A stretch of 64,000 nucleotides of DNA, taken from a virus. Location of the stretch: IMG/VR virus record IMGVR_UViG_3300028376_000003, positions 32,001 to 96,000 of that record; one strand, given 5' to 3'. Position 1 is the stretch's first letter, and every line of letters begins with the position of its first letter. A program made the translations under genes and the position numbers. Positions 26,806 through 62,733 of this stretch are shown here, piece by piece. The notes below the pieces were generated by a model, which saw nothing but the letters and a program-made list of their open reading frames with translations, ran no database searches and was not told the DNA's origin.

Positions 26806-29800
26806 TTATCTTCCACAAGGTAATACACCACTAATTACAGTACCATTATCTACTTCTAATGATCCAAATCCATTAGACACAAATCCATTAGCACCTATAC
26901 TTCCAATAAAGTTAGCATATACTTTTGTAGAACGTTCAAATATATCATTATTTGTATAATAGGATAATGTAGACTGGCTTTGACATGCCAAAGCTGATGT
27001 ACTACCTGAACTTAAATTATGAAGAAATAATGTCTCTTCATCATTTCCACTAGATGTTTGTGTTACTTCTTGTGTAACACTTAAATTTCCATTATCCTCA
27101 CTAGCCGTTATAATACCTACTCTAGGACCAGATGTGGTGTTCTGTAAGCGTGAAACAACCACATCTTTAGTACCAAATGAACTGAGTGGTGATACACTTA
27201 ACCAAGAAGGAGCATTAGTATCAATAGACCAATTAGTATTACTAGCTACTTCAATAGTATAATTTCCCCCATTAGAACTAACTTCTCTGGTAGCACTAGA
27301 GACTTGACCTTCGTTAGAAATAACCAAATAAGGTTGATCACCAGGTTGTGTAAGTGTATAAGTTGCTTGGAGGTTACCACCAACTTGTGACACAGTAATA
27401 GTACCATCTCTCTCACCAACTCTAGAATTTCCTTGATAACTAAAGCTATAATTAGCATTGCCCTCTCCACTCTCTACTGTTAAATCATTAATCCAAGGTG
27501 CTGACTTACTAACTGTCCAAGTTCCATTAGAAACTATTATAAAACTACCATTACCACTATTATTATTAGGTAGTGTAAGACTTTCTGGTGTCACACTTAA
27601 CGAAGGTTCATTCGGCTCATTTGGTATATTTCCATAGACCTCTACTGATGCTGTAGTATCTGTATTTATATAAGAATATCTTTCTGTTATGCCATCAGTA
27701 GTAGTAAATCTTGTATTAGGTAAAAATAATATAATTGAATTATTTATAACACGATCAATTTCAAAAGAGTTTGGTCCTATTGTATAAGTATCAGAATATT
27801 CATCAACTGAATTACTAAAGACAGAATCTCTAAAGCTGATTAAACCATTCACAAATGAATCAGAATCTGCTATTCCCTGTGCATCTATTACACCAGTCCC
27901 ATTAAAGTTTATAGATAGTGTTTCTGAAAATGTTATATTTTCACCATTGACACCTAATTCAAAATTTATATTTAATCTAATAGGCATATACGCATTTTCT
28001 AAGAATTCTATTCCTGAAAAGTCTAGTCTTATACGATGATTATCACTTCCTAAAATTCTAGGAACAAACAAAACAGGTATTTCTATAATCAAATTAGGAT
28101 CATCTCCTGGTGATGGATCATCTGGCTCATCATCACTTGGTGGTTCGGGTACATCAATTATTCCTATATCTATCCCAGAGTTACCAAAATCTATATCACC
28201 CGTGTTCAAACTTATAGTTCCTAAATTTATATCGATATTATCAATAAAATCAAAGTCATTATCTGTATAATCTATATATGGTGAAACACCAGTAAATGGT
28301 ATCTGAATGCTTTTATTTATATTATCATCTCTAAAATACTTGAAGAAAGGTACCATGTTTATTTCAAGTAACTTCAAGTTATCTATTATAGTGGAAGTTT
28401 CTAACTCTCCTAATAATCCACTACCCCTTATATTCATAGATAAATGCCTTTTGTTGAAAAAGTATTCAACCTTTCTCTTTCTGGGTGTTATTATGTGGTT
28501 TATGTTCTTATAAATTGGTAAGTAGGTAGATGGTCTTAATTGTATAATTTCTTGCGTTTCACCACTTTGTAACTCAACATTTTCTAACCTAGATGTTTTG
28601 TTTATGTTATCAAAATGTATTGTAGGCTCAGGTGATAAACTAGAAGAGAAAGTATTTCCACCAAATTGAGAATCTATCGGAAACCTATATTCATTTTCCC
28701 CAGAGTTATATTCAACCAAATCGAATTCAACAAGAGTATATCTATTTCTAGCTATATCTGCCCTATCCCTTCCTAATACATCAACAAGTGGTTCGTCTAA
28801 GTCCAAAACACCACCTTGTCCACTAGACATCATTTTAAGTTCTTCGCCTTGTATAACTGTAAATCCACCTAAACTTTCTGTCCTATCAAATGTTAGACTA
28901 GGGGTAATAGAACTTGTTGAGTTCTGTGGTATAGAGAATGACCATCCTTTTTCTAAAAATAAGTCTAAATCATCACCTGATGGTCCAAAGAAATCCTTAA
29001 ATTCGGAAGATTCACCAATGTAATCACTAAATATCTTAAACTTTGTACCAAGACTATATAGTCTTTTGTTTAAAGAGAAAGAATCCCTAAAATTAGAACT
29101 ACTAGATAATACATCATTCGTTGGATAACCATATAAGTTATTCTCTGAAAAATACTTTCTAGACACCTTATTCAATACTGTTTGTGGTTTGCCGATATTA
29201 ACAGCAGTATCTTCATAGTAGGTAACATCCAACCAAGAGTTATAGTTAAAAACTGCTAGAGAGTTAAGCGTTTTATTGGAAGTTAGTCTAGATACATTAT
29301 TGCTTTTAAAATCCATATTTTGTATAAGACCAGTTGAATAACCAGTTTTGTAAGTCCCACTTTCATCAGTAACACTCTGCCCCCATTCTTGATCTAATAT
29401 AACTTCAAAAGAATTTTTTATCTTTATTACACGATGTTCTCCATTATATTCAGTGTTAACTGTTATATCATCGTCTAATATAATTTCTATTATATCATTT
29501 ACCGCTAGATTGTGTTTTAAATCTGTTTTAATAGATAGTAAACCATCTTCATAAGATGTAGATATAAAATTTCCTGTCAAATACTCAACGCCCTTAAAGT
29601 GTCCACCATCGTAAATACCATCAATCCAATGTGTGTCTAACATTTCAGTTATAAGTGGATATCCTTTAAATAGTCCATAATTCCATATACCTTTAAAATA
29701 CCCATTTAGAAAACCACCTGATAGCCACACATTTCTAGTTATCATAATTCTATGATTTTTGGAATCTCTTTCTATTCTTCTCAGTGGGAATGTTGTTTCT

Positions 29801-31284
29801 ATATCTATATCTATAAACTCATCACCAATTCTAATTATTGTATACAATCCCCTTAGTATCTTCCTATTGTCGTTTATGTCTACACCAACTATATTACTTA
29901 TTGATATCTTATCACCAATTTTTAAACTTTCTTTTGTTGATAGAGCCTCGCCAACTAAACCCAAACCTATACCAGATATACTTGATGCGTTTATTGATTC
30001 ACTCGGACCAGATATTCTAACTACCCACTTTATATCAGAAAATGTTTTTACAGAAAATAACACATCGTGCATCTCTCTCATATCATCATCATTCCTATAT
30101 CCACTATTCCATACACCATTCTCCCATATTCCTGACTTAAAATAGGAATTTCCTATTTTAGATGTTAATTCACTCGGTATTAAATTGCTACCAGGAAGGG
30201 TTTTTATGTTATCAGGATCTGTATTATTTCGTATTATTTTACCAGTTCCCACAATTGTTGAAAACAAACTATTTCCCAAGTCACTAACCACTATGTTTGG
30301 TAATGTTACATCAAATAATTTATTATTATTATCTGAATATCCACCTCTTATTTCTATGTTAGATATTGCAATTACTACGTCTTTGTTGAGAGCTGCCGTG
30401 TCGCCTACAAAAACCACATACTTATTACCAACTAAACCTATATAATCAGCACTGTAGCTACCTTCACCACTTAAATAAGCTATTAGTGTAGAACTATCTA
30501 AGTATCTATCAAACCCATCCACTAGTGGTCTTTGTGGTGGTTCTATATCAGATAAATAAACTCTAATACCAGCATTTTCATCAGTTGTTATACCATTATC
30601 AACTCCTTTAGTATATTGGAATGATAAATTAAAGTCTTGAAAGCCAATATATCTAGACAAGTGATTAACATAATTATATTCCCTTTTTTCCTCCTTGGGT
30701 ATTCCTCCAGCTGGTGAAAACGCTTTATTAACATTGGCTTCCCTCTGATGATACCATATAAATGCAGAACTGTTATTATCATACCTCCATCCGTTACAAT
30801 ATAAATTTTTATTACCTAATCCTCTGCTATTTAACAGACTAATATCTGGATTATCATTTATCCAAGATAAACCACACATAATCCACTCTAGTTCAAAGAG
30901 TTCCAAATCTTTTATCCCAAAATCACTACCAAAGCTATTATTTGCAACTATATTTATATAATTATTAGTTGTTGCATTATTTATTGGTGAAGAGTTGAAA
31001 TATATATATCCATCTTGGTTACCAAAGCTAGACTGTCCATTTGTCTCATCGAATTTTAATCTAAAGCTATCCTCCCATAGAACACTCATTATTACATTTT
31101 GTGAAATAGACATATCTGTTAAGTTAGAAATGTGTATCTTGTAGTAGTAAGATTTGTTTTGCTTAAGTTCGCTGGGTTTGTTTAAGTATATTAAAGGACT
31201 AGCACCAGATACCTTAAATATCTTATCAGTATTAAAATCCCAACCTGGTCCAAACCATATAACATCTTGTTGCTGTATTGTCAT
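26806..31284 (-). CDS. giant putative tail/fibre protein with pentapeptide repeats and two BACON-like domains
   Basis: GIWENGVWNSG repeats; P/D linker; SNGTWTV..APWI..GERDGTIT and SNTNWSI..PSWLSVSP..PRVGIIT. Confidence 0.7.
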   Translation of the reverse strand: MTIQQQDVIWFGPGWDFNTDKIFKVSGASPLIYLNKPSELKQNKSYYYKIHISNLTDMSISQNVIMSVLWEDSFRLKFDETNGQSSFGNQDGYIYFNSSPINNATTNNYINIVANNSFGSDFGIKDLELFELEWIMCGLSWINDNPDISLLNSRGLGNKNLYCNGWRYDNNSSAFIWYHQREANVNKAFSPAGGIPKEEKREYNYVNHLSRYIGFQDFNLSFQYTKGVDNGITTDENAGIRVYLSDIEPPQRPLVDGFDRYLDSSTLIAYLSGEGSYSADYIGLVGNKYVVFVGDTAALNKDVVIAISNIEIRGGYSDNNNKLFDVTLPNIVVSDLGNSLFSTIVGTGKIIRNNTDPDNIKTLPGSNLIPSELTSKIGNSYFKSGIWENGVWNSGYRNDDDMREMHDVLFSVKTFSDIKWVVRISGPSESINASSISGIGLGLVGEALSTKESLKIGDKISISNIVGVDINDNRKILRGLYTIIRIGDEFIDIDIETTFPLRRIERDSKNHRIMITRNVWLSGGFLNGYFKGIWNYGLFKGYPLITEMLDTHWIDGIYDGGHFKGVEYLTGNFISTSYEDGLLSIKTDLKHNLAVNDIIEIILDDDITVNTEYNGEHRVIKIKNSFEVILDQEWGQSVTDESGTYKTGYSTGLIQNMDFKSNNVSRLTSNKTLNSLAVFNYNSWLDVTYYEDTAVNIGKPQTVLNKVSRKYFSENNLYGYPTNDVLSSSSNFRDSFSLNKRLYSLGTKFKIFSDYIGESSEFKDFFGPSGDDLDLFLEKGWSFSIPQNSTSSITPSLTFDRTESLGGFTVIQGEELKMMSSGQGGVLDLDEPLVDVLGRDRADIARNRYTLVEFDLVEYNSGENEYRFPIDSQFGGNTFSSSLSPEPTIHFDNINKTSRLENVELQSGETQEIIQLRPSTYLPIYKNINHIITPRKRKVEYFFNKRHLSMNIRGSGLLGELETSTIIDNLKLLEINMVPFFKYFRDDNINKSIQIPFTGVSPYIDYTDNDFDFIDNIDINLGTISLNTGDIDFGNSGIDIGIIDVPEPPSDDEPDDPSPGDDPNLIIEIPVLFVPRILGSDNHRIRLDFSGIEFLENAYMPIRLNINFELGVNGENITFSETLSINFNGTGVIDAQGIADSDSFVNGLISFRDSVFSNSVDEYSDTYTIGPNSFEIDRVINNSIILFLPNTRFTTTDGITERYSYINTDTTASVEVYGNIPNEPNEPSLSVTPESLTLPNNNSGNGSFIIVSNGTWTVSKSAPWINDLTVESGEGNANYSFSYQGNSRVGERDGTITVSQVGGNLQATYTLTQPGDQPYLVISNEGQVSSATREVSSNGGNYTIEVASNTNWSIDTNAPSWLSVSPLSSFGTKDVVVSRLQNTTSGPRVGIITASEDNGNLSVTQEVTQTSSGNDEETLFLHNLSSGSTSALACQSQSTLSYYTNNDIFERSTKVYANFIGSIGANGFVSNGFGSLEVDNGTVISGVLPCGR

Positions 31285-31333: not shown

Positions 31334-34300
31334 TTATTGAGGGTTTGTTAAATCACATAGACCAGCTACACCATTGAATTGTCCGTCCACGACCCTTTTC
31401 CAATAAAATTCTTTAATGTAGATACCAGTTAGTGCAGGTGTGTTTCCAAATTCATCTGTAAATATTACATTACCAAATGTCCAAGTTTGATTATCTGTCC
31501 AAACATTAATAGTTGTTCCACCATTTCCAGCACAGGCGTTGTTAGATGTGTCATAACGACCCACTAAATGTGGGAACAGTTCTATATTATTACCACTCTC
31601 TTGTGTTAGTCTTTGTATTCTTTCTATATTTGTTCCAATTATATTAATATCAGTAAATCTTTCAGCACCACTATTAGACCCATACTCAACCAATATTGTA
31701 CCACTTCCATTACCATTAGTAGGTGATATATTTTCAACCCAACTACTACCAGCTGAAACATTCCAAGAAACATTACTTGTTAATACTAGATTATAACTAC
31801 CAGGGTTACTACCGACTGTCTTGTTACCTTCTATTAGTATGAAAGGTGGTTGTGTACCATTTTGATTCAAAGTAAATGTTCTTACAATACCAAAGCCACT
31901 TATCACTATCGTTGCTGTTCTAGGTGAACTTTGTGTGTTTCTTACAAATTCAATATTTACACTTTCATTCAATCTTCCAGATGATGGATTTGTACTAACC
32001 CAAGAAGATGACCCAGCAGATATGTTCCAAGATATGTTACTAGTTATGTTTAATATATAATTACCTGCCTCATTTTGTACAGTTTCCTCATCACTTCCAA
32101 TTTCTAGTTCTGGATCACCATCAATTGGTATAATCTCAACAATTGAGGGCAGTGGTAAGAAGTCATTCTCTCCAATATCAGCAGTATCAACAGGCTCTTT
32201 TGCATCTGCTATACCACCTTCACTTGCCATTATTTCTGGTTCTGCAAAGACATTCCATATATGACATTCGTTAGAAACAGTTATATCAATACCTCGTTTT
32301 ATCAACTCAGCATCAAAATTATCAGTTACGCTTCCATTATACTCTATGAATGAACCATACCAGTTACCATTTCTCCAAGTTCCATCTTCCCAAAATATAT
32401 TATAAGCATTCATATACAAGCACGTCCCATTTCTCCATACCATACCATATGCATTGCCTTTATCAAATATACCATTTTCCCATATTGATATATGAAAATC
32501 ACTACCTTTTAATTCACCATTTCTCCATATACAACTATCGTTTGTATTAAATGTTTTGTTTGGATCATCCTCAACATTTCTAAACTCTCTATCTACAAAT
32601 GGATTAAATGAACTATTTATAAATCTACCATTGCCAAACTCACCGTCTAACCAAACAGAATTTACCATATCAGCATTCCTATTATCAAATATTCCACCTT
32701 GCCATAATACACCATCTAATATAACTTTATTAACATTTGGTCTCTGATTACTTTTGGTTGCTTTTGTGAAGAATTTCTTATTATTAGTAACTGCACCATT
32801 TCTCCATAAACCATAAAAATCTCTATTGCTTCTTAAAAAAGAGTCAACAAATACACTTGCGTTTTCACTTTTATCCCCTTCATATATATCACTAGAAATT
32901 GTATCTAATGATTGCCCAGAACCTTTAAACATACCATTAGTAAAAATTCCATTATTCCAGACTTTTCCTTGAAATTCACCACCATTAAACTCCCCATCCC
33001 ACCATGACGGATTATTAACACTACTTGCGTTACCAAAAACACCACCATTAAATACACCACCTTGCCAAGCATAATCTAACCTATTATTAGAAGAATCTTC
33101 ACCAGCTGTTGATAAGAATACACCACCATTAAATTCACCACCTTTCCACTGCGTATTTCCATTTACTTCACCACCATTAAATCTACCATTATTCCATATT
33201 GTAATATTTTCAGACCCAAGAATACCACCATTAAATTCACCATTGTTCCAAGTTATTATAAATGTGTTATTTCTTGCACTAAAAAGATTTGGACTTTGTG
33301 ATATAAGAGCTGCATTATCAACAGTTGTATTTTTAATTGTACCAGAGTATATGCGAGTATCGCTAGTTCTTAGGGTTTTCTTCCCAAGGACACCACCATT
33401 TATAAAACCAGTATAGAACTTAGAATTATAGAAATTACCTCCTTGAAACTCACCTGACTGCCAATCACTTTTTCTAAATTCACCACTTCTAAAAATACCA
33501 TTTACCCATGCGTATATATTATTTTTTAACAAAGTAGTGCTTGTTCTAACGCCATCTGATGTAGTTATAAATGTCAAACCATTCCTGTAATAAGAAAGAA
33601 TTGAATTAGAATTATATTCAGGTGATTCAGGTGTTGCTATCCCATTGAAGCTTCTACTATCATAAAAGATACCATCATTGAAAATTCCATTTAACCAGGT
33701 AGATTGTTTAAAAACACCATTGTTAAAATCTCCACTTCCCCACACACTATTATATATTATCCCATTTTCAAAAACATCACTTCCTTCTGAAAAATTTGAA
33801 TTCATATATGTTGCTTTTGATAGTATATTATTTAAATTTTTAAATATACTATCCGATATAACTAGACTTTTTATAAGTGATAAGTTGCTGAAATCAATGT
33901 CTCTTACATCATAATCATTATTTTCTATTAATGAATCTTTTATATAAGACCTTCTAAAAATACCACCTTGTATTTTAGATTTAGATATTTTAAGCTTGTG
34001 TACATGTGTGTAATTATTATTTAAGTTCCCTTGTGTAAAAGCACCACCAGTATTAGTACTTATAGATGATAGTATGCTATTATTAGTAAAGACTTCCTTT
34101 AATAATAACTCACCAGTTGTATCAAAATCATTATTAACCACAGTATAAGTATCTGGTATTTCCAGTATGAGTGGTAATTTATTATATACAATCTGATTAA
34201 GATAAACCACATCACCCTCTTTGTAACTATCCTCAATAGATTCCAAGTTATTAGGTTCAGCAGTAGTTTTAATCAATAAAGTACTTTCTGATGGATTTAC

Positions 34301-36763
34301 AGTTATATCATAAAGATTAGACCCACTAACAGACAAATTAGATATGTTATTGTCGTTGTTAAGTTCTATATGATCACCACTAACCCAATCACTATTTTCT
34401 ATAAGACCACTATCGAAATCAGAATTGACAATAAATGCATTTTCTATATCTACATAATCTCTTATTTTATTAGTAAGGAATAAATTATCTATATTGTTAT
34501 TAAAAAATTGAGGTGTATTAGTATCGTTGTTAAAATCTAGACCATACCTAGGAACTTCACTAAATGGTATCTCTTGTGTAGATTCTATATCCCTTCTTGA
34601 CACATCTGATATAGATACTAATATATCTAATGAATATAGGTTTTTGTCATTCTGTGTAACTACTCCATTTTTATATATGTTTGCATCTCTATAAGCAGTG
34701 TGTAGGAACTCATTGTCCCCATTTGTTGATAAGAATGATGCCATTTCTATACCTCTTTTATAAAAATCCTTATCTCTCTCGTCAAAACTTTTGTTATAAA
34801 AATCTACATATTCTGTCCACGAAGATATTTTAAATCTCTTGTTAAAAAAGTTTAATGGATATTTTAGACTATCCTTTATCCTAAGTCCTTTTATATAAAA
34901 CTTATCTTTTGACTGTAATGTATTATACCCATCCTCATCTATGTAAAATTTATATAACTTATGACTTACTCTAGTATCTACTGAGTCAGTTAATACAAGT
35001 TCGTCATAGTCTAATATCTTTATTGAGTTATCACTCAAATAAACAGAATTTAACATCAGAGACCTATTAAATATTGAATTAATAGATGTTATATTATCAA
35101 ATTTAGTTTTATTAGAACGGCAATTATCAACCGATGAATTCAAGACCTTTCCTCCGTTAAATTGACAATTGTTATAATATCCACCATTCAATTCAAATAA
35201 AAATTCTCTATCATTTGATTTTAAATAGTCTTCTATAACAGAGTGATTTACATCACCACCAAATGAAGTGTCATATATGTTACCATTTTCTATAATTACA
35301 TCATTTAAATCAGATTTAAATAAGAAATTAAAACCAGATCCGTTATTATTTTCACCATTTATCTTTTCATATGGCTTATTTCCTTCACCAAACTGTGATA
35401 TAAAACTATCGGGTAGTGTAAATGTTGACTTAATAATACCTTTTAGCCACTTTACATTAAGCAAAGTACCCATATTCCACTCTCCATCCCCAGTCCATGG
35501 AATTTTTTTGTTCTTTGTACCATATAGACCACCATTAAACCTACCATTGAATAAACCCTTTCTAAAATTAGATTTGGTTATTATAGCATCATCAAAATCT
35601 TTATCAATAACCCATTCCCCATCTTCTACGCTCCACTGATATATACCATCCTCTGTAAACTCATATGCTTTATCTTCATACGATATTAATATATTTCCAT
35701 TATTAATCCTAACTCTATCATTAAAAGAAGATATAGAATTTGAAACTATATTTTCGTAGCTACTAGATATAAGTGTCTCTGTAACATCAACCCACTCACC
35801 CTCTATATTTCTTATATAAAATCCCTCTTTCTCTATACCACTATTAGAACCAAGTCCTTCAAACCCATCATAAGATTTATCAACATATAGTATATTATTC
35901 TTACCAGCAGAAAACTTATATTGAAACACGCCACTCCTTGTTGATATTTGTTTACTATATAGTCTAAAGTCTGATACATCTTTTGCCACATATATGTTAA
36001 GAAAATTATCCCTTTTATCTCTTTTGAAAGGAAGTTCTCCAGTGTAATTTATATCTAGAACAACTCTACACTTGTCTATGAATAGAATTTTATAACCATC
36101 TCTACCTTTCTTATATCTATTATTTATCTTAGTCAAATCTATATCATAAGGACCACCTATTATAAAAACCCTATCTCCTATCTTGTAATTTGTATTTACC
36201 TCTGTGTAAAACAATGTTTTAGGTATGTTATTTATATCATATGGTTCTACATAGCTCAAAAGTCTAGGTGATGAAACTCTTTCATTTTCTTGTTCCAAAT
36301 CTCCTATTCTTTGATTGCTTGTCTTACTTTCTGTCGAAATACTACTCCCAACTAGGTCTAAATTATTTTTATATTTAAATAAATCAACTGCACTTAGTAA
36401 AATAGGCTTTTTTGATATAACATCCTTTAATGTTGGTGTCTCTATAGGGACAAACTTTACATTTCCTATATTAACAGACATTTTTTTAATACTCGAAGTA
36501 TTGGTATTAACCACAGTCTTTAGATTTTTTAAGTCTAACCTTTGTTTATCATTCCTAGCTCTTTCTTCATTATAATTTTTAATATCATCAACTGTGATAT
36601 TAAAAACAGATGCTAACTTCCTCAAAAGTTCATCTGTTGGTCTTTTTATATTACTTTCTATATTCCTATAAGCCTTTTCGAAAACTTTTAACCTTTTGGA
36701 TATATCTTTAATACTAATGCTCTGGTTTTCTCGTATGTTTTTGATATTAGAACCTAATGACAT
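31334..36763 (-). CDS. giant protein: N-terminal XRE HTH + pentapeptide repeats + two BACON-like domains
   Basis: LGSNIKNIRE..SIKDIS..IESNIKRPT..LRKLASVF; long GxFNG/GxWxN runs; SNISWNI..SWVSTNP..PRTATI. Confidence 0.72.
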   Translation of the reverse strand: MSLGSNIKNIRENQSISIKDISKRLKVFEKAYRNIESNIKRPTDELLRKLASVFNITVDDIKNYNEERARNDKQRLDLKNLKTVVNTNTSSIKKMSVNIGNVKFVPIETPTLKDVISKKPILLSAVDLFKYKNNLDLVGSSISTESKTSNQRIGDLEQENERVSSPRLLSYVEPYDINNIPKTLFYTEVNTNYKIGDRVFIIGGPYDIDLTKINNRYKKGRDGYKILFIDKCRVVLDINYTGELPFKRDKRDNFLNIYVAKDVSDFRLYSKQISTRSGVFQYKFSAGKNNILYVDKSYDGFEGLGSNSGIEKEGFYIRNIEGEWVDVTETLISSSYENIVSNSISSFNDRVRINNGNILISYEDKAYEFTEDGIYQWSVEDGEWVIDKDFDDAIITKSNFRKGLFNGRFNGGLYGTKNKKIPWTGDGEWNMGTLLNVKWLKGIIKSTFTLPDSFISQFGEGNKPYEKINGENNNGSGFNFLFKSDLNDVIIENGNIYDTSFGGDVNHSVIEDYLKSNDREFLFELNGGYYNNCQFNGGKVLNSSVDNCRSNKTKFDNITSINSIFNRSLMLNSVYLSDNSIKILDYDELVLTDSVDTRVSHKLYKFYIDEDGYNTLQSKDKFYIKGLRIKDSLKYPLNFFNKRFKISSWTEYVDFYNKSFDERDKDFYKRGIEMASFLSTNGDNEFLHTAYRDANIYKNGVVTQNDKNLYSLDILVSISDVSRRDIESTQEIPFSEVPRYGLDFNNDTNTPQFFNNNIDNLFLTNKIRDYVDIENAFIVNSDFDSGLIENSDWVSGDHIELNNDNNISNLSVSGSNLYDITVNPSESTLLIKTTAEPNNLESIEDSYKEGDVVYLNQIVYNKLPLILEIPDTYTVVNNDFDTTGELLLKEVFTNNSILSSISTNTGGAFTQGNLNNNYTHVHKLKISKSKIQGGIFRRSYIKDSLIENNDYDVRDIDFSNLSLIKSLVISDSIFKNLNNILSKATYMNSNFSEGSDVFENGIIYNSVWGSGDFNNGVFKQSTWLNGIFNDGIFYDSRSFNGIATPESPEYNSNSILSYYRNGLTFITTSDGVRTSTTLLKNNIYAWVNGIFRSGEFRKSDWQSGEFQGGNFYNSKFYTGFINGGVLGKKTLRTSDTRIYSGTIKNTTVDNAALISQSPNLFSARNNTFIITWNNGEFNGGILGSENITIWNNGRFNGGEVNGNTQWKGGEFNGGVFLSTAGEDSSNNRLDYAWQGGVFNGGVFGNASSVNNPSWWDGEFNGGEFQGKVWNNGIFTNGMFKGSGQSLDTISSDIYEGDKSENASVFVDSFLRSNRDFYGLWRNGAVTNNKKFFTKATKSNQRPNVNKVILDGVLWQGGIFDNRNADMVNSVWLDGEFGNGRFINSSFNPFVDREFRNVEDDPNKTFNTNDSCIWRNGELKGSDFHISIWENGIFDKGNAYGMVWRNGTCLYMNAYNIFWEDGTWRNGNWYGSFIEYNGSVTDNFDAELIKRGIDITVSNECHIWNVFAEPEIMASEGGIADAKEPVDTADIGENDFLPLPSIVEIIPIDGDPELEIGSDEETVQNEAGNYILNITSNISWNISAGSSSWVSTNPSSGRLNESVNIEFVRNTQSSPRTATIVISGFGIVRTFTLNQNGTQPPFILIEGNKTVGSNPGSYNLVLTSNVSWNVSAGSSWVENISPTNGNGSGTILVEYGSNSGAERFTDINIIGTNIERIQRLTQESGNNIELFPHLVGRYDTSNNACAGNGGTTINVWTDNQTWTFGNVIFTDEFGNTPALTGIYIKEFYWKRVVDGQFNGVAGLCDLTNPQ

Positions 36764-55873: not shown

Positions 55874-56308
55874 TTAAAAATTTTGATCGATTTCGTATCT
55901 AACCCAATTGTCTGTTGATATACATTCGTAAATAAATAAGTCGTCTGAAGCTCTTTGTCCTTGAACACCCGAAGATGTACTGTTTGTTGGTATAGAAACA
56001 TATTCTAGTGGAGTAGCATCATCAACTGTTAAATATCTTGACCAAGTACTACTACTAGTGCCATTACTAGCGTTACTGTATAGTACACCTTCTTCATCAA
56101 ATGCTAATGCAAAGTACTCTGGTGTTGATGAAAATACTGATGATGATGTACCACTAAATCCTAAATAGTTATTTTCTGAATCATATATTAGATTAGAATA
56201 ACTTAGACCACTAGATTCCATTTTTATATCATCACTTCCTTGTGTTGATAATATACTACCACCATTCATATTTATTTTACCACCTCCTAAAATAATTATC
56301 TCGGTCAT
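55874..56308 (-). CDS. putative virion fibre/decoration protein
   Basis: C-terminal PTNSTSSGVQGQRASDDLFIYECISTDNWVR resembles the G-x-x-G-Q...Y-x-C...W fibre-tip motif. Confidence 0.55.
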   Translation of the reverse strand: MTEIIILGGGKINMNGGSILSTQGSDDIKMESSGLSYSNLIYDSENNYLGFSGTSSSVFSSTPEYFALAFDEEGVLYSNASNGTSSSTWSRYLTVDDATPLEYVSIPTNSTSSGVQGQRASDDLFIYECISTDNWVRYEIDQNF

Positions 56309-56485
56309 ATGCTATTACATAACCACCTAGCTCAGGAGCAATTGCTTAGTCTATTGTTATTTTTTTTTGAAAGTATACTAATACCATACGTTATAATATT
56401 TTTTATTATACTATATATATTTAATTTCACAATTGCTTTTAAACTTAATGTAGTAATTTTAATATATAAGTAAATATGCTTTCAT

Positions 56486-57007
56486 ATGACACGGAATTTT
56501 AAATCAGTTAAAGAAGTACGAGATTTCAAGAAAAAAACTCTTGATATTTATGAGAAAATAGATAATGGAAGAAAATTCACAAACCACTATAAAGAATATG
56601 ATATCTTCAATATGTCTAAGCACTTGGAGATTGGACAACATTTTTTATACGAGAAATATTTATACAAAAGAAGTAAAGGAAATAGTAGTCTTATATGTTA
56701 TCCAGAAATGGGTGTGTTTTTAAATACAATACCAATAGATCAGACCTTTGAGTTGGAATGGTATGATTATAGAAGAACATGGGAATATAATATAAGTGTA
56801 ACAAATGATGATAGTGAGATGTTAATGTATGATTTTCCTAGTGAGATTAGTACTCTTATATTATGGCAAGATAGTTTATTTGTTTATGACGTTTGGGACA
56901 AAAAACCTGACTGGAAACAAATGAGAAAAGCATATGATAAAACTTGGTGGTTCCATAAAACTAAAGAAAAGATAAGACATTTAAAGATAAATTCCATATT
57001 AAGATAA
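56486..57007 (+). CDS. hypothetical protein with C-terminal RHLKINSIL motif
   Basis: TAATATATA at 56460-56468. Confidence 0.65.
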   Translation: MTRNFKSVKEVRDFKKKTLDIYEKIDNGRKFTNHYKEYDIFNMSKHLEIGQHFLYEKYLYKRSKGNSSLICYPEMGVFLNTIPIDQTFELEWYDYRRTWEYNISVTNDDSEMLMYDFPSEISTLILWQDSLFVYDVWDKKPDWKQMRKAYDKTWWFHKTKEKIRHLKINSILR

Positions 57008-57010
57008 TTG

Positions 57011-57343
57011 TTATTTAGGTAATTTCATATCACTTGTTACTTCAATCTTAAATCCAAGTCCTGTGCTTTCATCAGAACCATACTTAGTCTCAGAGTGATA
57101 TCCATTATCAGAATGAAATGTTATTGGTTTAGCACCATGCATCTTTTGCTTATCCTTTTCCTCTTTTTCTTTAAGCATTTCCTCAAATGTTAGATTATCT
57201 GATTTATTTACACTATTATCTCTTATAGTATCTTGTCTATCAGAGTAACCGTACTTTCTTAGTAGTTCCTCTGCCTCTTGTCCAGTTACTTCCCTTTCAC
57301 TTTCAACTCTTTGTCCTTCTATTTGTCTTGTAGTAGCTCTCAT
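57011..57343 (-). CDS. hypothetical protein
   Basis: TAATATATA upstream (57348-57356). Confidence 0.6.
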   Translation of the reverse strand: MRATTRQIEGQRVESEREVTGQEAEELLRKYGYSDRQDTIRDNSVNKSDNLTFEEMLKEKEEKDKQKMHGAKPITFHSDNGYHSETKYGSDESTGLGFKIEVTSDMKLPK

Positions 57344-57453
57344 ATCATATATATTAAAATAATATCTTTGTTAATTATATCTTAAAAATAGTGTGTTAAA
57401 TTAATACATTTCATATATTTGTATAATAAATATCAAAAGAGACAAAACTTTTT

Positions 57454-57462
57454 TAATATATA
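57454..57462 (+). promoter_or_regulatory. TAATATATA promoter box for tRNA operon 1
   Basis: Preceded by AAAACTTTTT; TATATTTG also at 57414. Confidence 0.6.
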
Positions 57463-57478
57463 GTATATAAACATAAAT

Positions 57479-57551
57479 CGCGGGGTAGAGCAGTAGGTAG
57501 CTCGCTAGGCTCATAACCTAGAGGTCGTTGGTTCGAGTCCAACTCCCGCTA
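57479..57551 (+). tRNA. tRNA-Met(CAT), initiator-like
   Basis: CGCGGGG/TCCCGCT acceptor with C1 mismatch, CTAGG-CTCATAA-CCTAG anticodon arm, TTCGAGT T-loop. Confidence 0.92.
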
Positions 57552-57571
57552 CAAATAAATAAATAAATAAA

Positions 57572-57655
57572 ATGAATACTTTTACTAACATAGAATATTA
57601 TTATGAAGAATCTGAACGAAAACGCTCGGCTAGTCTTTTGATGTCTATAATGTAA
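57572..57655 (+). CDS. attenuator leader peptide MNTFTNIEYYYEESERKRSASLLMSIM (Tyr/Glu control codons)
   Basis: 27-codon ORF after A-rich leader; codons 8-15 GAA TAT TAT TAT GAA GAA TCT GAA; followed by terminator and tRNA-Tyr, tRNA-Glu. Confidence 0.8.
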   Translation: MNTFTNIEYYYEESERKRSASLLMSIM

Positions 57656-57672
57656 ATTAAATTATAGTATAA

Positions 57673-57708
57673 AAAAAACCCAGTCTAGTAATATAGACTG
57701 GGTTTTTT
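57673..57708 (+). terminator. attenuator terminator upstream of tRNA-Tyr/Glu
   Basis: AAAAAACCCAGTCTA-gtaata-TAGACTGGG-TTTTTT. Confidence 0.88.
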
Positions 57709-57721
57709 GTTTTAAAAATAT

Positions 57722-57804
57722 GGGGGTAATATGGCACAGGTAGTCATGTCGGTCTGTAAAACCGATTCCGAAAGGTATTGTGGGTTCGAGTCCCACTACG
57801 CCCA
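57722..57804 (+). tRNA. tRNA-Tyr(GTA)
   Basis: TCGGT-CTGTAAA-ACCGA anticodon arm, long variable arm, GTGGG-TTCGAGT-CCCAC; one G:G mismatch in acceptor stem. Confidence 0.88.
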
Positions 57805-57814
57805 CTTAGTACAT

Positions 57815-57887
57815 GCTCCGTTCGTCTAGTGGACTAGGACCCCAGGCTTTCAACTTGGTAACGGGAGTTCAATTCTCCCACGGAGTA
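57815..57887 (+). tRNA. tRNA-Glu(TTC)
   Basis: GCTCCGT/ACGGAGT acceptor, CCAGG-CTTTCAA-CTTGG, GGGAG-TTCAATT-CTCCC. Confidence 0.92.
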
Positions 57888-57969
57888 CTAGTTTTAATAT
57901 TGTTTAAAATAGGATTATAATAATATAATGCTTATATTTGCCTATTATTTAATTTTAAAAAGCTTTTAA

Positions 57970-58134
57970 ATGGAAAAAAACACAATACAAGATTTTAAGT
58001 GTGTATATGTTTATAGAACTGGTAAAAAAATACATGAATGTGTATTTAAAGCCTACAATGTTGAGCAAGCTAAGACACATTTTTCGTTTTTTTATCCGAA
58101 AAGGATATTGAAAGAAATTGAATTACAAAAATAA
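57970..58134 (+). CDS. small hypothetical protein (54 aa, below track cutoff)
   Basis: MEKNTIQDFKCVYVY...; TATATTTG at 57933. Confidence 0.55.
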   Translation: MEKNTIQDFKCVYVYRTGKKIHECVFKAYNVEQAKTHFSFFYPKRILKEIELQK

Positions 58135-58140
58135 ATTATT

Positions 58141-58359
58141 ATGGTTTTAAAAATAGAGATAGAAGGAATTGGCGAATTCGACATAAAACATGATTTGTTA
58201 CATCGAGGTAATCGACCAAGACTGAAAACTTACCATAAAGGGATATTTAGAGAAGTATCTTTTAATAGTTTTGAAGACTATCTAAATCCTACCTATCAGA
58301 GAGGATTTGATTATGAAGGAACAGAAATACAGATTAAAATTTTAGAAAATACAGATTAA
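58141..58359 (+). CDS. small hypothetical protein
   Basis: ORF in operon with preceding small ORF. Confidence 0.6.
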   Translation: MVLKIEIEGIGEFDIKHDLLHRGNRPRLKTYHKGIFREVSFNSFEDYLNPTYQRGFDYEGTEIQIKILENTD

Positions 58360-58381
58360 TTTAAGAGGGAGAGTAAACTTT

Positions 58382-58390
58382 TAATATATA
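58382..58390 (+). promoter_or_regulatory. TAATATATA promoter box for tRNA operon 2
   Basis: AAACTTT-TAATATATA-G, same context as 57454. Confidence 0.6.
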
Positions 58391-58406
58391 GTGTAATATA
58401 ACAATT

Positions 58407-58481
58407 ATGAGAACAATTAATAACATAGCAATAATAGCGATAGGCAAAGGGAAAACTCATTGGCTGGGAATTGTTATGTAA
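58407..58481 (+). CDS. attenuator leader peptide MRTINNIAIIAIGKGKTHWLGIVM (Ile-AUA/Ala/Gly control codons)
   Basis: Codons 7-15 ATA GCA ATA ATA GCG ATA GGC AAA GGG; followed by terminator and tRNA-Ile(TAT), Gly, Gly, Ala. Confidence 0.82.
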   Translation: MRTINNIAIIAIGKGKTHWLGIVM

Positions 58482-58504
58482 TTAATTTAATTATAAATTA
58501 TCAT

Positions 58505-58533
58505 AAACCCAGTCAGAAATGACTGGGTTTTTT
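58505..58533 (+). terminator. attenuator terminator upstream of tRNA-Ile/Gly/Gly/Ala
   Basis: AAACCCAGTCA-GAAA-TGACTGGGTTT-TTT; 5' arm can alternatively pair with TGGCTGGG at 58461-58468. Confidence 0.9.
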
Positions 58534-58547
58534 ATTTTATTATAAAT

Positions 58548-58621
58548 TGGTATGTAGCTTAGATGGTAAAAGCACATGGCTTATATCCATGAGATAGTGG
58601 GTTCGATACCCATCATACCAA
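58548..58621 (+). tRNA. tRNA-Ile(TAT)
   Basis: TGGTATG/CATACCA acceptor, CATGG-CTTATAT-CCATG anticodon arm, GTGGG-TTCGATA-CCCAT. Confidence 0.88.
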
Positions 58622-58629
58622 CAAAATAA

Positions 58630-58703
58630 GCAGGTAACGCATAAGTGATGGTGCACTAGCCTTCCAAGCTAGAATAGAATCGGTTTGATCCCGATTACCT
58701 GCT
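58630..58703 (+). tRNA. tRNA-Gly(TCC), divergent copy
   Basis: GCAGGTA/TACCTGC, CTAGC-CTTCCAA-GCTAG, U73; T-loop TTTGATC is non-canonical. Confidence 0.8.
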
Positions 58704-58714
58704 CGATATAAAAT

Positions 58715-58788
58715 GCAAATGTAGCTCAATTGGCTAGAGTGTCTGATTTCCATTCAGAAAGTTGTAGGTTCGAATCCTATCATTTGCT
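58715..58788 (+). tRNA. tRNA-Gly(TCC)
   Basis: GCAAATG/CATTTGC, TCTGA-TTTCCAT-TCAGA, TTCGAAT, U73. Confidence 0.88.
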
Positions 58789-58795
58789 CATTAAT

Positions 58796-58873
58796 GGGGG
58801 ATTAGCTCAGTCTGGTCGTAAGCGATAGCTTTGCAAGCTGTGTCATACATCGGTTCAAATCCGATATCCTCCA
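58796..58873 (+). tRNA. tRNA-Ala(TGC)
   Basis: GGGGGAT/ATCCTCC with G3:U70, ATAGC-TTTGCAA-GCTGT. Confidence 0.9.
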
Positions 58874-59165
58874 CAGCTTAATTAAAAAAAACAATAATTA
58901 TAGAAGATTTGAGTGCGAGATAGATAGAGAGAGGAGTAATTACTAAATTTGCATCAGATGAATTGGAGAAGTTGTCTAAAAATCATCAGGCTAGAAAATA
59001 TCAAAGCTTCACTATAGATAGGTGAGTTGTTGATATTGTGGACATGTCACCGATTTCTAAGCTAACAAATTCAGTAGATGTGATAGTTTATGGTGGTGAT
59101 TCATTAATGGAGATTTCTTAGAAACATATTAATAATATATATATAGAGAAAATGTACATATTATT

Positions 59166-59921
59166 ATGATTATAAGATTTAGAAGTAGAGGAGAAAAAGT
59201 TAAGGATTTACAAAACTTGTTAGGACTAAAACCTGATGGTATATTTGGTCCTAACACTTTGAAAGCTTTGAAGAATTTTCAAAGAGATAATGGATTAAGC
59301 GTAGATGGTATAGTTGGTCCTAATACTTGGTCTGTTTTAGTAAAAAACGATAAGAATAGAATAAGACCAATTTACGATGTTGATCTAAACGAAGAAGATT
59401 CTGTATCTGATCCAGAGTGTATGTTCTGTGTAGAAGATATTGAGGAAACACAACCTTTGTCCCCTAGTACAAGGGAACTTATAAACCTAATAGAATCTAG
59501 TGATATTACTAGGAATATAAAAAGGCTTGTTTTCCATTGTACTGCAACATCTCAAAAAGCTACTGTATCTGCCATTGTGAATTATTGGAAGAATACACTT
59601 GGGTGGCGTTCACCAGGTTATCATATAATTGTTAGGCCAGATGGAACTTGGAATCAACTACTAGACTTTAACAGAGTCTCTAATGGTGTTCGTGGTATCA
59701 ATTCTACTACTATAAATATATCATATATTGGTGGTGTTGACCGAAATGGTAGAGCATTGGATAATAGAACTAAAAAGCAAAAGGATGTCTATGAAACCAT
59801 TTATAGAGCTTTTAAGCATAAATTACCTAGAATAACATTTCATGGACATAATGAATTTTCATCAAAAGCATGTCCATCTTTTAATGTTAAAAATTGGATA
59901 AAGTCTTTAAGAGTAATTTAA
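59166..59921 (+). CDS. endolysin: PG-binding domain + N-acetylmuramoyl-L-alanine amidase (T7 lysozyme-like)
   Basis: DGIFGPNT..FQ..GLSVDGIVGPNTW; FHCTA, PGYH, HGHNE, KACPSF. Confidence 0.9.
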   Translation: MIIRFRSRGEKVKDLQNLLGLKPDGIFGPNTLKALKNFQRDNGLSVDGIVGPNTWSVLVKNDKNRIRPIYDVDLNEEDSVSDPECMFCVEDIEETQPLSPSTRELINLIESSDITRNIKRLVFHCTATSQKATVSAIVNYWKNTLGWRSPGYHIIVRPDGTWNQLLDFNRVSNGVRGINSTTINISYIGGVDRNGRALDNRTKKQKDVYETIYRAFKHKLPRITFHGHNEFSSKACPSFNVKNWIKSLRVI

Positions 59922-59983
59922 TTAGTATATATTTGCATAGTAAGAATTCTAAAAGAAAGAAAAATTATAATATTATTTTACTA

Positions 59984-60008
59984 TATATCATGATGTTGCA
60001 TGTTTTTA
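59984..60008 (+). repeat. 25-bp dispersed intergenic direct repeat, copy 2
   Basis: Identical to 21854-21878. Confidence 0.85.
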
Positions 60009-61497: not shown

Positions 61498-62733
61498 ATG
61501 AATAACACATCAATTATAGATTCATTTACTGAGCTTAAGTCAGACAAAATGATTAATAAAATAGAGATAATGGAAATCCTAGACTCTGTTTTTAGATTTG
61601 AGTTTAGAAAAAAATATGATACAGATGAAAACTTTGATATAATTCTAAACCCAGATAACGGAGATTTAGAAATATGGCAAAACAAAATCGTTGTACAAGA
61701 TGGCGAGGTTGAAAACCACAATACTGAAATAGAAATTTCAGAAGTTCTTAAGGTGGAGTCAGATTTTGAAATAGGGGAAGAATATCCACAAGAATTCAAA
61801 ATATCAGAATTAGGAAGAAGATCTATATTAAGTTTAAGACAGAATCTAAAGGCTAGAATAAAAGACTACGAAAATAAATCAACAATAGAGAAGTTTGAAG
61901 ATATGATTGGATATATTTTCAATGCCGAAGTCCATCACATAAAAAGAAATATGGTTATATTACTAGATGATGAGGGTATTGAAATTTGTTTACCAAAAGA
62001 TAATCAGATACCTGGTGAGTTTTACAGAAAAGGTGATACAATATCATTTGTGGTAGAAGAAGCTGAAATTAGAAACAATAAGCCATACATTATTGCATCA
62101 AGAACATCAAGTAAGTTTCTAGAAAGAATAATGGAACAAGAAATACCTGAAATATTCGATGGTCTAATAAATATAAAGAACATAGTTAGAGTACCTGGTA
62201 TTAAAGCTAAGGTAGCAGTGGAAACATATGATGATAGAATTGATCCTGTTGGAACTTGTGTTGGTAGTAGAGGAAGTCGAATAATGGCAGTTACTAGAGA
62301 GCTAAATGGTGAGAGTATAGATATCATAAGCTACACAAATAATATGGATTTATATATAACTAGGTCGTTAAAACCAGCCGTTGTTAAATTTATAAAGGTA
62401 GAAGATGGTAAAGCTGACGTTCATTTAAATGGTGAAGATATTGGTAAGGCTATTGGTAAGAAAGGTTCTAATATAAGATTAACTAGCTTACTTACTGGTC
62501 TAGAAATAAATCTTATAAATGATGAGCAAGCTACAGAGGAAGATATAGATCTTATGGAATTTTCTGATGAAGTTGATTTATGGGTAATAAATGAATTTAA
62601 AAAAGCTGGTATAGATACTGCTAAATCATTACTATCTTATGGTTTTAGTGAACTTGTAAATATGACAGATTTAGAGGATGTGACTATTGAGAAGATAATA
62701 AAAATAATCAAACAAGAATTTGTTGATAGTTAA
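61498..62733 (+). CDS. nusA: transcription termination/antitermination factor NusA
   Basis: NTD, S1, ASRT..FL..QEIPEI, R.PG..AKVAV..IDPVGTCVG.RGSRI KH1, AIGKKGSNIRL KH2, C-terminal HhH. Confidence 0.93.
   Translation: MNNTSIIDSFTELKSDKMINKIEIMEILDSVFRFEFRKKYDTDENFDIILNPDNGDLEIWQNKIVVQDGEVENHNTEIEISEVLKVESDFEIGEEYPQEFKISELGRRSILSLRQNLKARIKDYENKSTIEKFEDMIGYIFNAEVHHIKRNMVILLDDEGIEICLPKDNQIPGEFYRKGDTISFVVEEAEIRNNKPYIIASRTSSKFLERIMEQEIPEIFDGLINIKNIVRVPGIKAKVAVETYDDRIDPVGTCVGSRGSRIMAVTRELNGESIDIISYTNNMDLYITRSLKPAVVKFIKVEDGKADVHLNGEDIGKAIGKKGSNIRLTSLLTGLEINLINDEQATEEDIDLMEFSDEVDLWVINEFKKAGIDTAKSLLSYGFSELVNMTDLEDVTIEKIIKIIKQEFVDS

Follow-up and report, generated by a model that had tools for sequence, protein, structure and literature searches.

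The locus considered here raises the question of whether a short open reading frame (ORF), crowded with tyrosine and glutamate codons, controls the tRNA-Tyr and tRNA-Glu genes that lie directly behind it. The stretch of DNA that was analysed, called the window in the following, has a length of 64,000 nucleotides and covers bases 32001-96000 of an IMG/VR virus record of 141,527 bp (the contig), with a G+C content of 28.7% and a CheckV completeness of ca 20%. Coordinates refer to the window unless the contig is named. The reading that we favour, at a probability of roughly 0.75, is that of a ribosome-mediated, trp-type leader-peptide transcription attenuator placed before phage tRNA genes, for which there is no experimental or transcript evidence. 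It is probably correct at the level of the system, and the antiterminator of this particular locus is its least convincing part.

All features of the locus, called unit 1, are on the plus strand. The leader ORF (57572-57655) has 27 codons, with the ATG at 57572 and the TAA at 57653-57655. Seven of the eight codons 8-15 (57593-57616) are TAT or GAA; the order is GAA, three TAT, two GAA, TCT and GAA, which encodes EYYYEESE, all three Tyr codons of the run being TAT and all four Glu codons GAA. No Shine-Dalgarno sequence is present upstream of the ATG. Bacteroidota, to which the host is here only predicted to belong, are known not to rely on such sequences. The ORF is followed by an intrinsic terminator (57679-57708), composed of a 9-bp G+C-rich stem (57679-57687 with 57694-57702), a 6-nt loop and a T6 run (57703-57708). 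Its energy is -21.9 kcal/mol including an A/U extension (z = -7.24), and none of 200 shuffled sequences was as stable. The first regulated gene, tRNA-Tyr(GUA) (57722-57805), starts 13 nt past the T-run, and the second, tRNA-Glu(UUC) (57815-57888), follows 9 nt later. These two tRNAs are the only genes downstream of the leader, with no gene for amino-acid synthesis or transport among them.

Upstream of the leader there is a further tRNA gene, tRNA-Met(CAU) (57479-57552), which is found by both ARAGORN and Rfam (62.7 bits) and ends 19 nt short of the leader ATG. Two of its features, a C1.U72 mismatch and an A11:U24 pair, are hallmarks of bacterial initiators, and in each of the four phages compared a tRNA-Met stands ahead of the Tyr/Glu leader. 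The ORF, its codons, the terminator and the tRNAs had all been described in a previous sequence-only reading, and every one of them held at the positions given here. This is true also for its placement of an initiator tRNA-Met ahead of the switch; because of this location the tRNA would be made regardless of the state of the switch, which is an inference.

Unit 1 is not alone. In each of the four tRNA clusters of the contig, the first tRNA is directly preceded by a short ORF and then a strong T-tailed hairpin. Unit 2, likewise on the plus strand, has a leader ORF of 24 codons (58407-58481) with four ATA, two GCA/GCG and three GGN codons, in which codons 7-15 are rich in these three kinds. Its terminator (58505-58533) has a hairpin core nearly the same as that of unit 1, and the tRNAs that follow are Ile(UAU), Gly(UCC), Gly(UCC) and Ala(UGC) (58548-58874). 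The other two units lie beyond the end of the window (loci L003 and L004, contig 101912-103120 and 106621-107280). The unit 3 leader (39 codons, contig 101912-102031) precedes tRNAs for Leu, Asn, Arg(UCU), Val, Cys, Thr and Met, and its codons 1-24 are exclusively for Lys, Asn, Leu, Thr, Arg, Val, Ile, Met and Cys. The unit 4 leader (34 codons, contig 106621-106725) has a Pro/Gln/Asp run and precedes Asp, Gln and Pro tRNAs. The distance from the stop codon to the first tRNA is 66 nt in all four units. An exact spacing of 66 nt as a rule of the family was dropped, as the relatives described below span about 59 to 81 nt.

The match between each leader and its own tRNAs was evaluated by a binomial test, with the amino-acid usage of the long ORFs of the phage as baseline. 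For units 1-4, the residues matching the own cluster number 7/26, 11/23 (Ile, Gly or Ala), 27/38 and 9/33, with p values of 0.026, 7e-4, 3e-6 and 0.017 and a combined Fisher value of 4e-9. When the four leaders of the contig were compared with the clusters of the other units, none of the 12 combinations was significant. A stricter, empirical null consists of the 468 ATG-started ORFs of 20-45 codons in the whole 141-kb contig, scored in a 12-codon window. Here, each of the four leaders ranks first of the 468 for the set of amino acids served by its cluster; in unit 1, Tyr and Glu make up 7 of the 12 residues in the best window, the single highest value. It is important to point out that the enrichment over the whole unit 1 ORF is modest (p = 0.026), since Tyr and Glu are most often encoded by TAT and GAA in this genome of 28.7% G+C. 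The strength of the match in this unit lies in the density of the run, which exceeds chance, and in the four-fold repetition across the contig. A codon-matched leader is also found in nine units of relatives.

A blastn comparison of the region with GenBank phages gave a match to LR745206.1 across the promoter motif and tRNA-Met. This 635-kb genome is among the phages of more than 634 kb placed in the Mahaphage clade by Al-Shayeb et al. 2020 (PMC7162821), for which Bacteroidetes hosts have been predicted (Al-Shayeb et al. 2020, PMC7162821). In LR745206.1 the tRNAs are partitioned into the same blocks, and five blocks have a matched leader: there are homologues of all four units and, in addition, a His/Phe/Trp/Lys/Ser leader before exactly those tRNAs. 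The own-cluster p values of the five are 4e-3, 3e-2, 2e-2, 8e-6 and 9e-3, and the off-diagonal comparisons are not significant. Homologues of units 1 and 2 are present in each of LR756502.1 and IMGVR_UViG_3300033066_000737, and in all three relatives the Tyr/Glu unit follows tRNA-Met. The homologues of the unit 1 leader are at L009:24030-24116, L011:5336-5428 and L014:8839-8925. The four Tyr/Glu leaders have the first seven residues and the richness in Tyr and Glu in common, and differ in codon order and C-terminal residues. The N-terminal pattern of the Tyr/Glu leader was not found in LR756504.1 or LR756501.1, and the tRNA region inspected in the latter has no clear unit. A search for relatives through the amidase gene (59166-59921) gave one distant contig without tRNAs, and one through the NusA homologue gave none. 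Finally, three metagenome contigs are near-identical strains of the present phage, and such strains retain the whole of unit 1.

Concerning the host, two giant proteins encoded at 26806-31284 (-) and 31334-36763 (-), of 1492 and 1809 aa, contain BACON domains, the 1809-aa protein having also an N-terminal HTH_3 domain. The BACON domains are consistent with a phage of Bacteroidota, a host assignment that remains only a prediction.

We now consider where transcription might begin. The motif TTAATATATA occurs 33 times in 141 kb, and ca 28 of the copies are followed, after 4-36 nt, by the ATG of a long ORF. It is found directly before the leaders of units 2, 3 and 4 (in unit 2 at 58381-58390, 16 nt before the ATG), and in unit 1 it stands before tRNA-Met (57453-57462, 17 nt upstream of the gene). 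Judging from these positions, we infer that it is the general gene-start or promoter signal of the phage. Its short distance to the ATGs would then mean that 5' leaders are very short or absent and that the promoter is phage-specific; its presence before a tRNA argues for a role in transcription rather than translation; and its presence before the leaders of units 2-4 implies that these are signalled like genes. A purine-rich element was noticed ahead of TTAATATATA in the tRNA units. There is also a Bacteroidota-type -7 promoter box of the form TAnnTTTG at 57414-57421 (+), whose function is inferred. In units 3 and 4 the same box precedes the leader by ca 100 nt, and it does so in the units of LR745206.1 as well.

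The gaps between terminator and first tRNA contain, in all units, neither TTAATATATA nor a sigma-70-like site, and a promoter of unknown type cannot be excluded. The sequence-only reading would have been refuted by an independent promoter downstream of 57708; nothing promoter-like is present in the 13-nt gap before tRNA-Tyr.

For an attenuator, the leader must also be able to interfere with the terminator, and the best evidence for this comes from the sister units. In unit 3, the leader ORF contains a 10-nt exact copy of the terminator 3' arm, giving a duplex with the 5' arm of -16.7 to -19.2 kcal/mol that is equalled by no shuffled sequence (p < 0.003). In the LR745206.1 homologue of this unit, the terminator stem and the leader copy have both changed and still match each other, with the encoded residues being altered. 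The change is thus compensatory between the two phages. In unit 2, an 8-bp duplex of -14.4 kcal/mol can be formed between 58461-58468 and 58508-58515 (p = 0.003-0.004 against shuffles), and its leader strand is conserved in three homologues. Considering all 13 units, the best duplex between leader and arm always lies between the regulatory codons and the stop codon, with p values ranging from below 0.003 to 0.34. The combined Fisher value for these duplexes against shuffles is 9e-9, which is inflated since the units are homologous. Taken as observations, the ORFs, the agreement between codons and tRNAs, the terminators, the complementarities and the conservation of all these are demonstrated.

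At this point it is appropriate to discuss the possibility that the arrangement is a coincidence. In this scenario, the ORFs have arisen by chance in spacers rich in A+T, the hairpins are ordinary terminators or insulators of upstream transcripts, and the tRNAs are expressed by leaky read-through or from unrecognised promoters overlapping the hairpins. It can be said in its favour that short ORFs are common at this base composition, as the 468 of 20-45 codons illustrate, that the promoters of the phage are uncharacterised, and that transcript data are absent. Against it stand the first rank of all four leaders for their own clusters, the replication of the match in the five units of LR745206.1, the co-variation between phages of the leader copy with the terminator arm, and the location of three leaders directly behind the gene-start motif of the genome. 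We therefore regard coincidence as strongly disfavoured and very improbable.

The trp-type attenuator thus remains the preferred reading, and the case of unit 1 itself has to be examined separately. Folding was performed with a ribosome footprint placed either on the regulatory codons or on the stop codon, using the RNA that is made before the terminator 3' arm, a check that the sequence-only reading had proposed. In all four units of the contig, the minimum-energy fold has the 5' arm of the terminator paired when the ribosome occupies the regulatory codons and unpaired when it occupies the stop codon.

The identity of the pairing partner in unit 1 is less clear. An RNAalifold consensus of the four Tyr/Glu homologues gives a 7-bp helix in which 27 of 28 cells are paired, compared to 14-31% in controls where the helix is slid along the alignment. 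In the present phage this helix is formed between 57629-57635 (GCUAGUC) and 57683-57689 (GUCUAGU), the latter consisting of the last five nt of the terminator 5' arm and two loop nt. The leader element is GUCAGAC in the other three phages, and two of the pairs are compensatory. Both compensatory changes are, however, on the single branch leading to the present phage, where one U.U mismatch is also found at a position that pairs in the three homologues, and 42 of 500 shuffles show as much covariation. With only four sequences, this covariation is no more than suggestive. The minimum-energy fold of the nascent RNA has, in addition, an AU-rich inner hairpin that spans the stop codon (57645-57667). 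A strain variant with A>G at 57649 retains the pair concerned as G.U, and the Tyr/Glu homologues also have a hairpin at this position, with another sequence.

The energies are not in favour of a strong antiterminator in unit 1. The duplex of the leader with the arm is only -7.3 kcal/mol (p = 0.34), which is the poorest of the 13, the others having p values of 0.00-0.22. The pairing probability of the 5' arm is 0.53, compared to 0.42 +/- 0.18 for shuffled leaders (p ~0.3). The composite antiterminator amounts to about -10.3 kcal/mol against -21.9 for the terminator, and it could therefore act only kinetically. The trp attenuator is likewise kinetic, and its classical 2:3 helix is much weaker than the 3:4 helix. 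A protector (1:2) helix between codons 7-13 and leader nt 63-77 is also predicted in the minimum-energy fold of the unoccupied RNA of unit 1, and it is modest, with an energy of -14.4 kcal/mol and a z value of only -1.37.

These results allow the structural claims of the sequence-only reading to be judged. Its inner hairpin, 57645-57651 with 57661-57667, held, being part of the nascent-RNA fold just described. Its outer helix, 57628-57633 with 57680-57685, can be drawn, but both folding and comparison favour 57629-57635 with 57683-57689. Taken alone, the alternative pairing that it proposed is not above chance by either of the two measures given above (pairing probability and duplex). The idea that a ribosome at the stop codon covers the antiterminator strands failed for the 5' strand, which is at leader nt 58-64 (57629-57635); a more likely route to termination is that this strand pairs again with the codon run in the 1:2 helix. 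An antiterminator unable to compete with the terminator had been named as a refutation, and in thermodynamic terms this applies to unit 1, such that the unit must act kinetically, as trp does. The attenuator reading as such is supported, mainly by the sister units and the relatives, which were not part of that evidence.

One can envisage from the above that the system is real in the family and that unit 1 is a weakened or differently wired copy of it. It could, for example, be a leaky constitutive dampener, or it could lack an effective antiterminator and depend only on ribosome occupancy and the 1:2 helix. The poor duplex and the U.U mismatch speak for this alternative, as does the alignment, which suggests that the conserved leader element lacks ca 3-4 nt in the present phage. 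Several points speak against it: no other codon run in the genome is as dense in Tyr and Glu as that of unit 1, the two changes in the arm have their counterparts in two changes in the leader, the near-identical strains keep the unit whole, and the classical trp attenuator tolerates the same imbalance between its helices. We consider a defective or rewired unit 1 to be unlikely.

Returning to the attenuator, the following sequence of events can be proposed. Transcription would start at the motif at 57453-57462, cross the initiator-like tRNA-Met and enter the 27-codon ORF, and a ribosome would translate the leader as it emerges. A shortage of Tyr-tRNA(GUA) or Glu-tRNA(UUC) would make this ribosome linger on codons 8-15 and thereby keep the codon run from pairing with leader nt 63-77. 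The freed segment 57629-57635, together with the AU hairpin at 57645-57667, would then pair with 57683-57689, and this antiterminator would take up half of the 5' arm of the terminator while the 3' arm has yet to be transcribed, allowing RNA polymerase to read through into tRNA-Tyr and tRNA-Glu. If the codons are instead read fast, the ribosome would reach the stop codon and leave, the leader would refold on itself, the terminator would form, and transcription would halt 13 nt before tRNA-Tyr. Since the regulated tRNAs decode the sensor codons, the result would be a negative feedback on the supply of each set of tRNAs, and the same design would gate the other three tRNA clusters of the contig. 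It is important to note that translation of the leader, the coupling of transcription to translation, and the direction and size of the response are all inferred, and that neither the identity of the polymerase nor its obedience to intrinsic terminators is known.

A third alternative is that the leaders encode functional micropeptides, or that the tRNAs are sensed directly in the manner of a T-box, the likeness to an attenuator being secondary. The conservation of the seven N-terminal residues within each leader type is in line with a functional peptide, and so is the fact that units 3 and 4 have these first seven residues in common. However, the middle and C-terminal parts of the leaders drift freely, and the feature that is kept is a codon composition matching the tRNAs. 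One conserved RNA element falls in different reading frames in two homologues. Furthermore, in one strain (L032, Ga0307945_1010314) a single nucleotide is deleted just downstream of the unit 2 regulatory codons, at a position equivalent to 58446-58454 of the window, by which the frame is shifted and the stop displaced by one codon, with the regulatory codons kept. The persistence of this frameshifted strain argues against a functional peptide, unless the deletion is a homopolymer assembly error. As to direct sensing, no T-box match was obtained with Rfam at E values up to 1 (window 56000-60000) or up to 0.1 (L003 and L004). The only leader family hit over unit 1 is an opposite-strand Thr_leader at 23.6 bits (gathering threshold 55, E = 0.28), and no known leader family is above threshold. 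Neither version of this third alternative appears at all probable.

The translation-dependent attenuator can be compared with the known systems. Like trpL, hisL, pheL, leuL, thrL and ilvL, the units have a short ORF with a run of regulatory codons and a terminator before the regulated genes, and, as in the enterobacterial attenuators, there is a leader strand for which two alternative partners are predicted, the codon run and the 5' arm of the terminator, although in unit 1 both pairings are only weakly supported. The thr and ilv leaders, which respond to several amino acids, resemble units 3 and 4. Unlike in the enterobacterial cases, the regulated genes are phage tRNAs and not biosynthetic enzymes, and the product itself decodes the sensor codons; there is also no sequence relationship and no Shine-Dalgarno sequence, and the predicted host is a member of the Bacteroidota. 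As only tRNA genes are found downstream, the units would work like the attenuator family with a new class of target.

The nearest system in purpose is the pheM leader, which attenuates pheST of E. coli, encoding phenylalanyl-tRNA synthetase. There, too, a translation component that serves the codons of the leader is under leader-peptide attenuation, but the gene is bacterial and codes for a protein, one amino acid is sensed, and no tRNA genes are gated. T-box riboswitches are similar to the phage units in that the tRNA pool is sensed and a terminator/antiterminator switch is placed before translation-related genes. They differ in binding uncharged tRNA by a specifier codon and a conserved T-box sequence, without translation, whereas the phage units have an ORF with many regulatory codons.

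The literature searched contains no paper on control of phage genes or of tRNA genes by leader peptides or attenuation; leader-peptide attenuation is established for amino-acid operons, and for tRNA genes we have not found it published. In the current general view, the expression of tRNA genes depends on promoter strength and on growth-rate control and does not involve codon-specific sensing. To our knowledge, no tRNA gene is known to have its supply autoregulated by the speed of translation, and essentially nothing is known of phages controlling their own tRNA genes. If the reading is correct, it would be the first case in which the speed of codon decoding feeds back directly on the synthesis of the cognate tRNAs, and leader-peptide attenuation would operate in phages predicted to infect Bacteroidota.

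A bolder reading, which we consider more likely than not, is that Mahaphage-like giant phages group their tRNA genes in blocks according to amino acid and that every block is led by a codon-matched leader-peptide sensor of its own. Such a modular regulon would gauge how well the phage messages are decoded for each codon set and top up only the limiting tRNAs, for example upon depletion of host tRNAs or their cleavage by anticodon-nuclease defences. A leader-peptide switch before tRNA genes would in any case offer a direct, testable handle on why large phages carry tRNAs, be it codon supply, loss of host tRNAs or evasion of defence, and would supply compact, portable sensor parts for individual tRNA pools.

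A number of additional observations were made in the surroundings of the units. The phage encodes a NusA homologue at 61498-62733 (+), 2.6 kb past the tRNA units, with 411 aa and Pfam matches to NusA_N (5e-23) and KH_5 (4e-24). NusA enhances hairpin pausing and intrinsic termination, and the homologue may for this reason tune the tRNA switches. Between tRNA-Glu and unit 2 there are two ORFs, 57970-58134 and 58141-58359 (+), of 54 and 72 aa and without Pfam match. A Bacteroidota-type -7 box at ca 57933-57940 lies ahead of them, so unit 2 could possibly also be reached by read-through from this promoter.

Within the tRNA block of unit 2, the two Gly(UCC) genes are different from each other. The first one (58630-58703, +) scores 44 bits with Rfam and is called by ARAGORN only at a lowered threshold. 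The intron mode and low thresholds of ARAGORN give mostly spurious calls, and they were relied on solely to confirm this additional tRNA-Gly gene.

The leaders of units 3 and 4 both begin with the seven residues MKNLNLN, and ca 100 nt of upstream sequence are also common to the two units. Their regulatory codons and terminator stems are divergent, and the two have the look of a duplicated and re-tuned cassette. A pattern derived from their common start gave matches only inside unrelated coding regions. In metagenomes, 16 of 19 pattern matches were unrelated ORFs.

The tRNAs of unit 3 include some unusual members. The tRNA-Arg with anticodon UCU (L003:1568-1648, contig 102567-102647) is missed by ARAGORN at default settings and scores 39 bits with Rfam; its D-arm is cut to ca 3 nt and it has a long variable arm. 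Between tRNA-Asn and tRNA-Leu, a segment of ca 100 nt (L003:1270-1372, contig 102270-102372) contains a T-arm-like sequence and no Rfam tRNA, and ARAGORN needs a lowered threshold to call a 96-nt Ile(GAU) in it. The segment might represent a tRNA that is degenerate or atypical. At the end of the array, a tRNA (L003:1994-2079, contig 102993-103079) is called as Met(CAU) and has 86-87 nt and a long extra arm; as such an arm is atypical for tRNA-Met, the tRNA could be specific for either Met or, through a modified CAU, Ile. The array is closed by a strong terminator at contig ~103080-103120.
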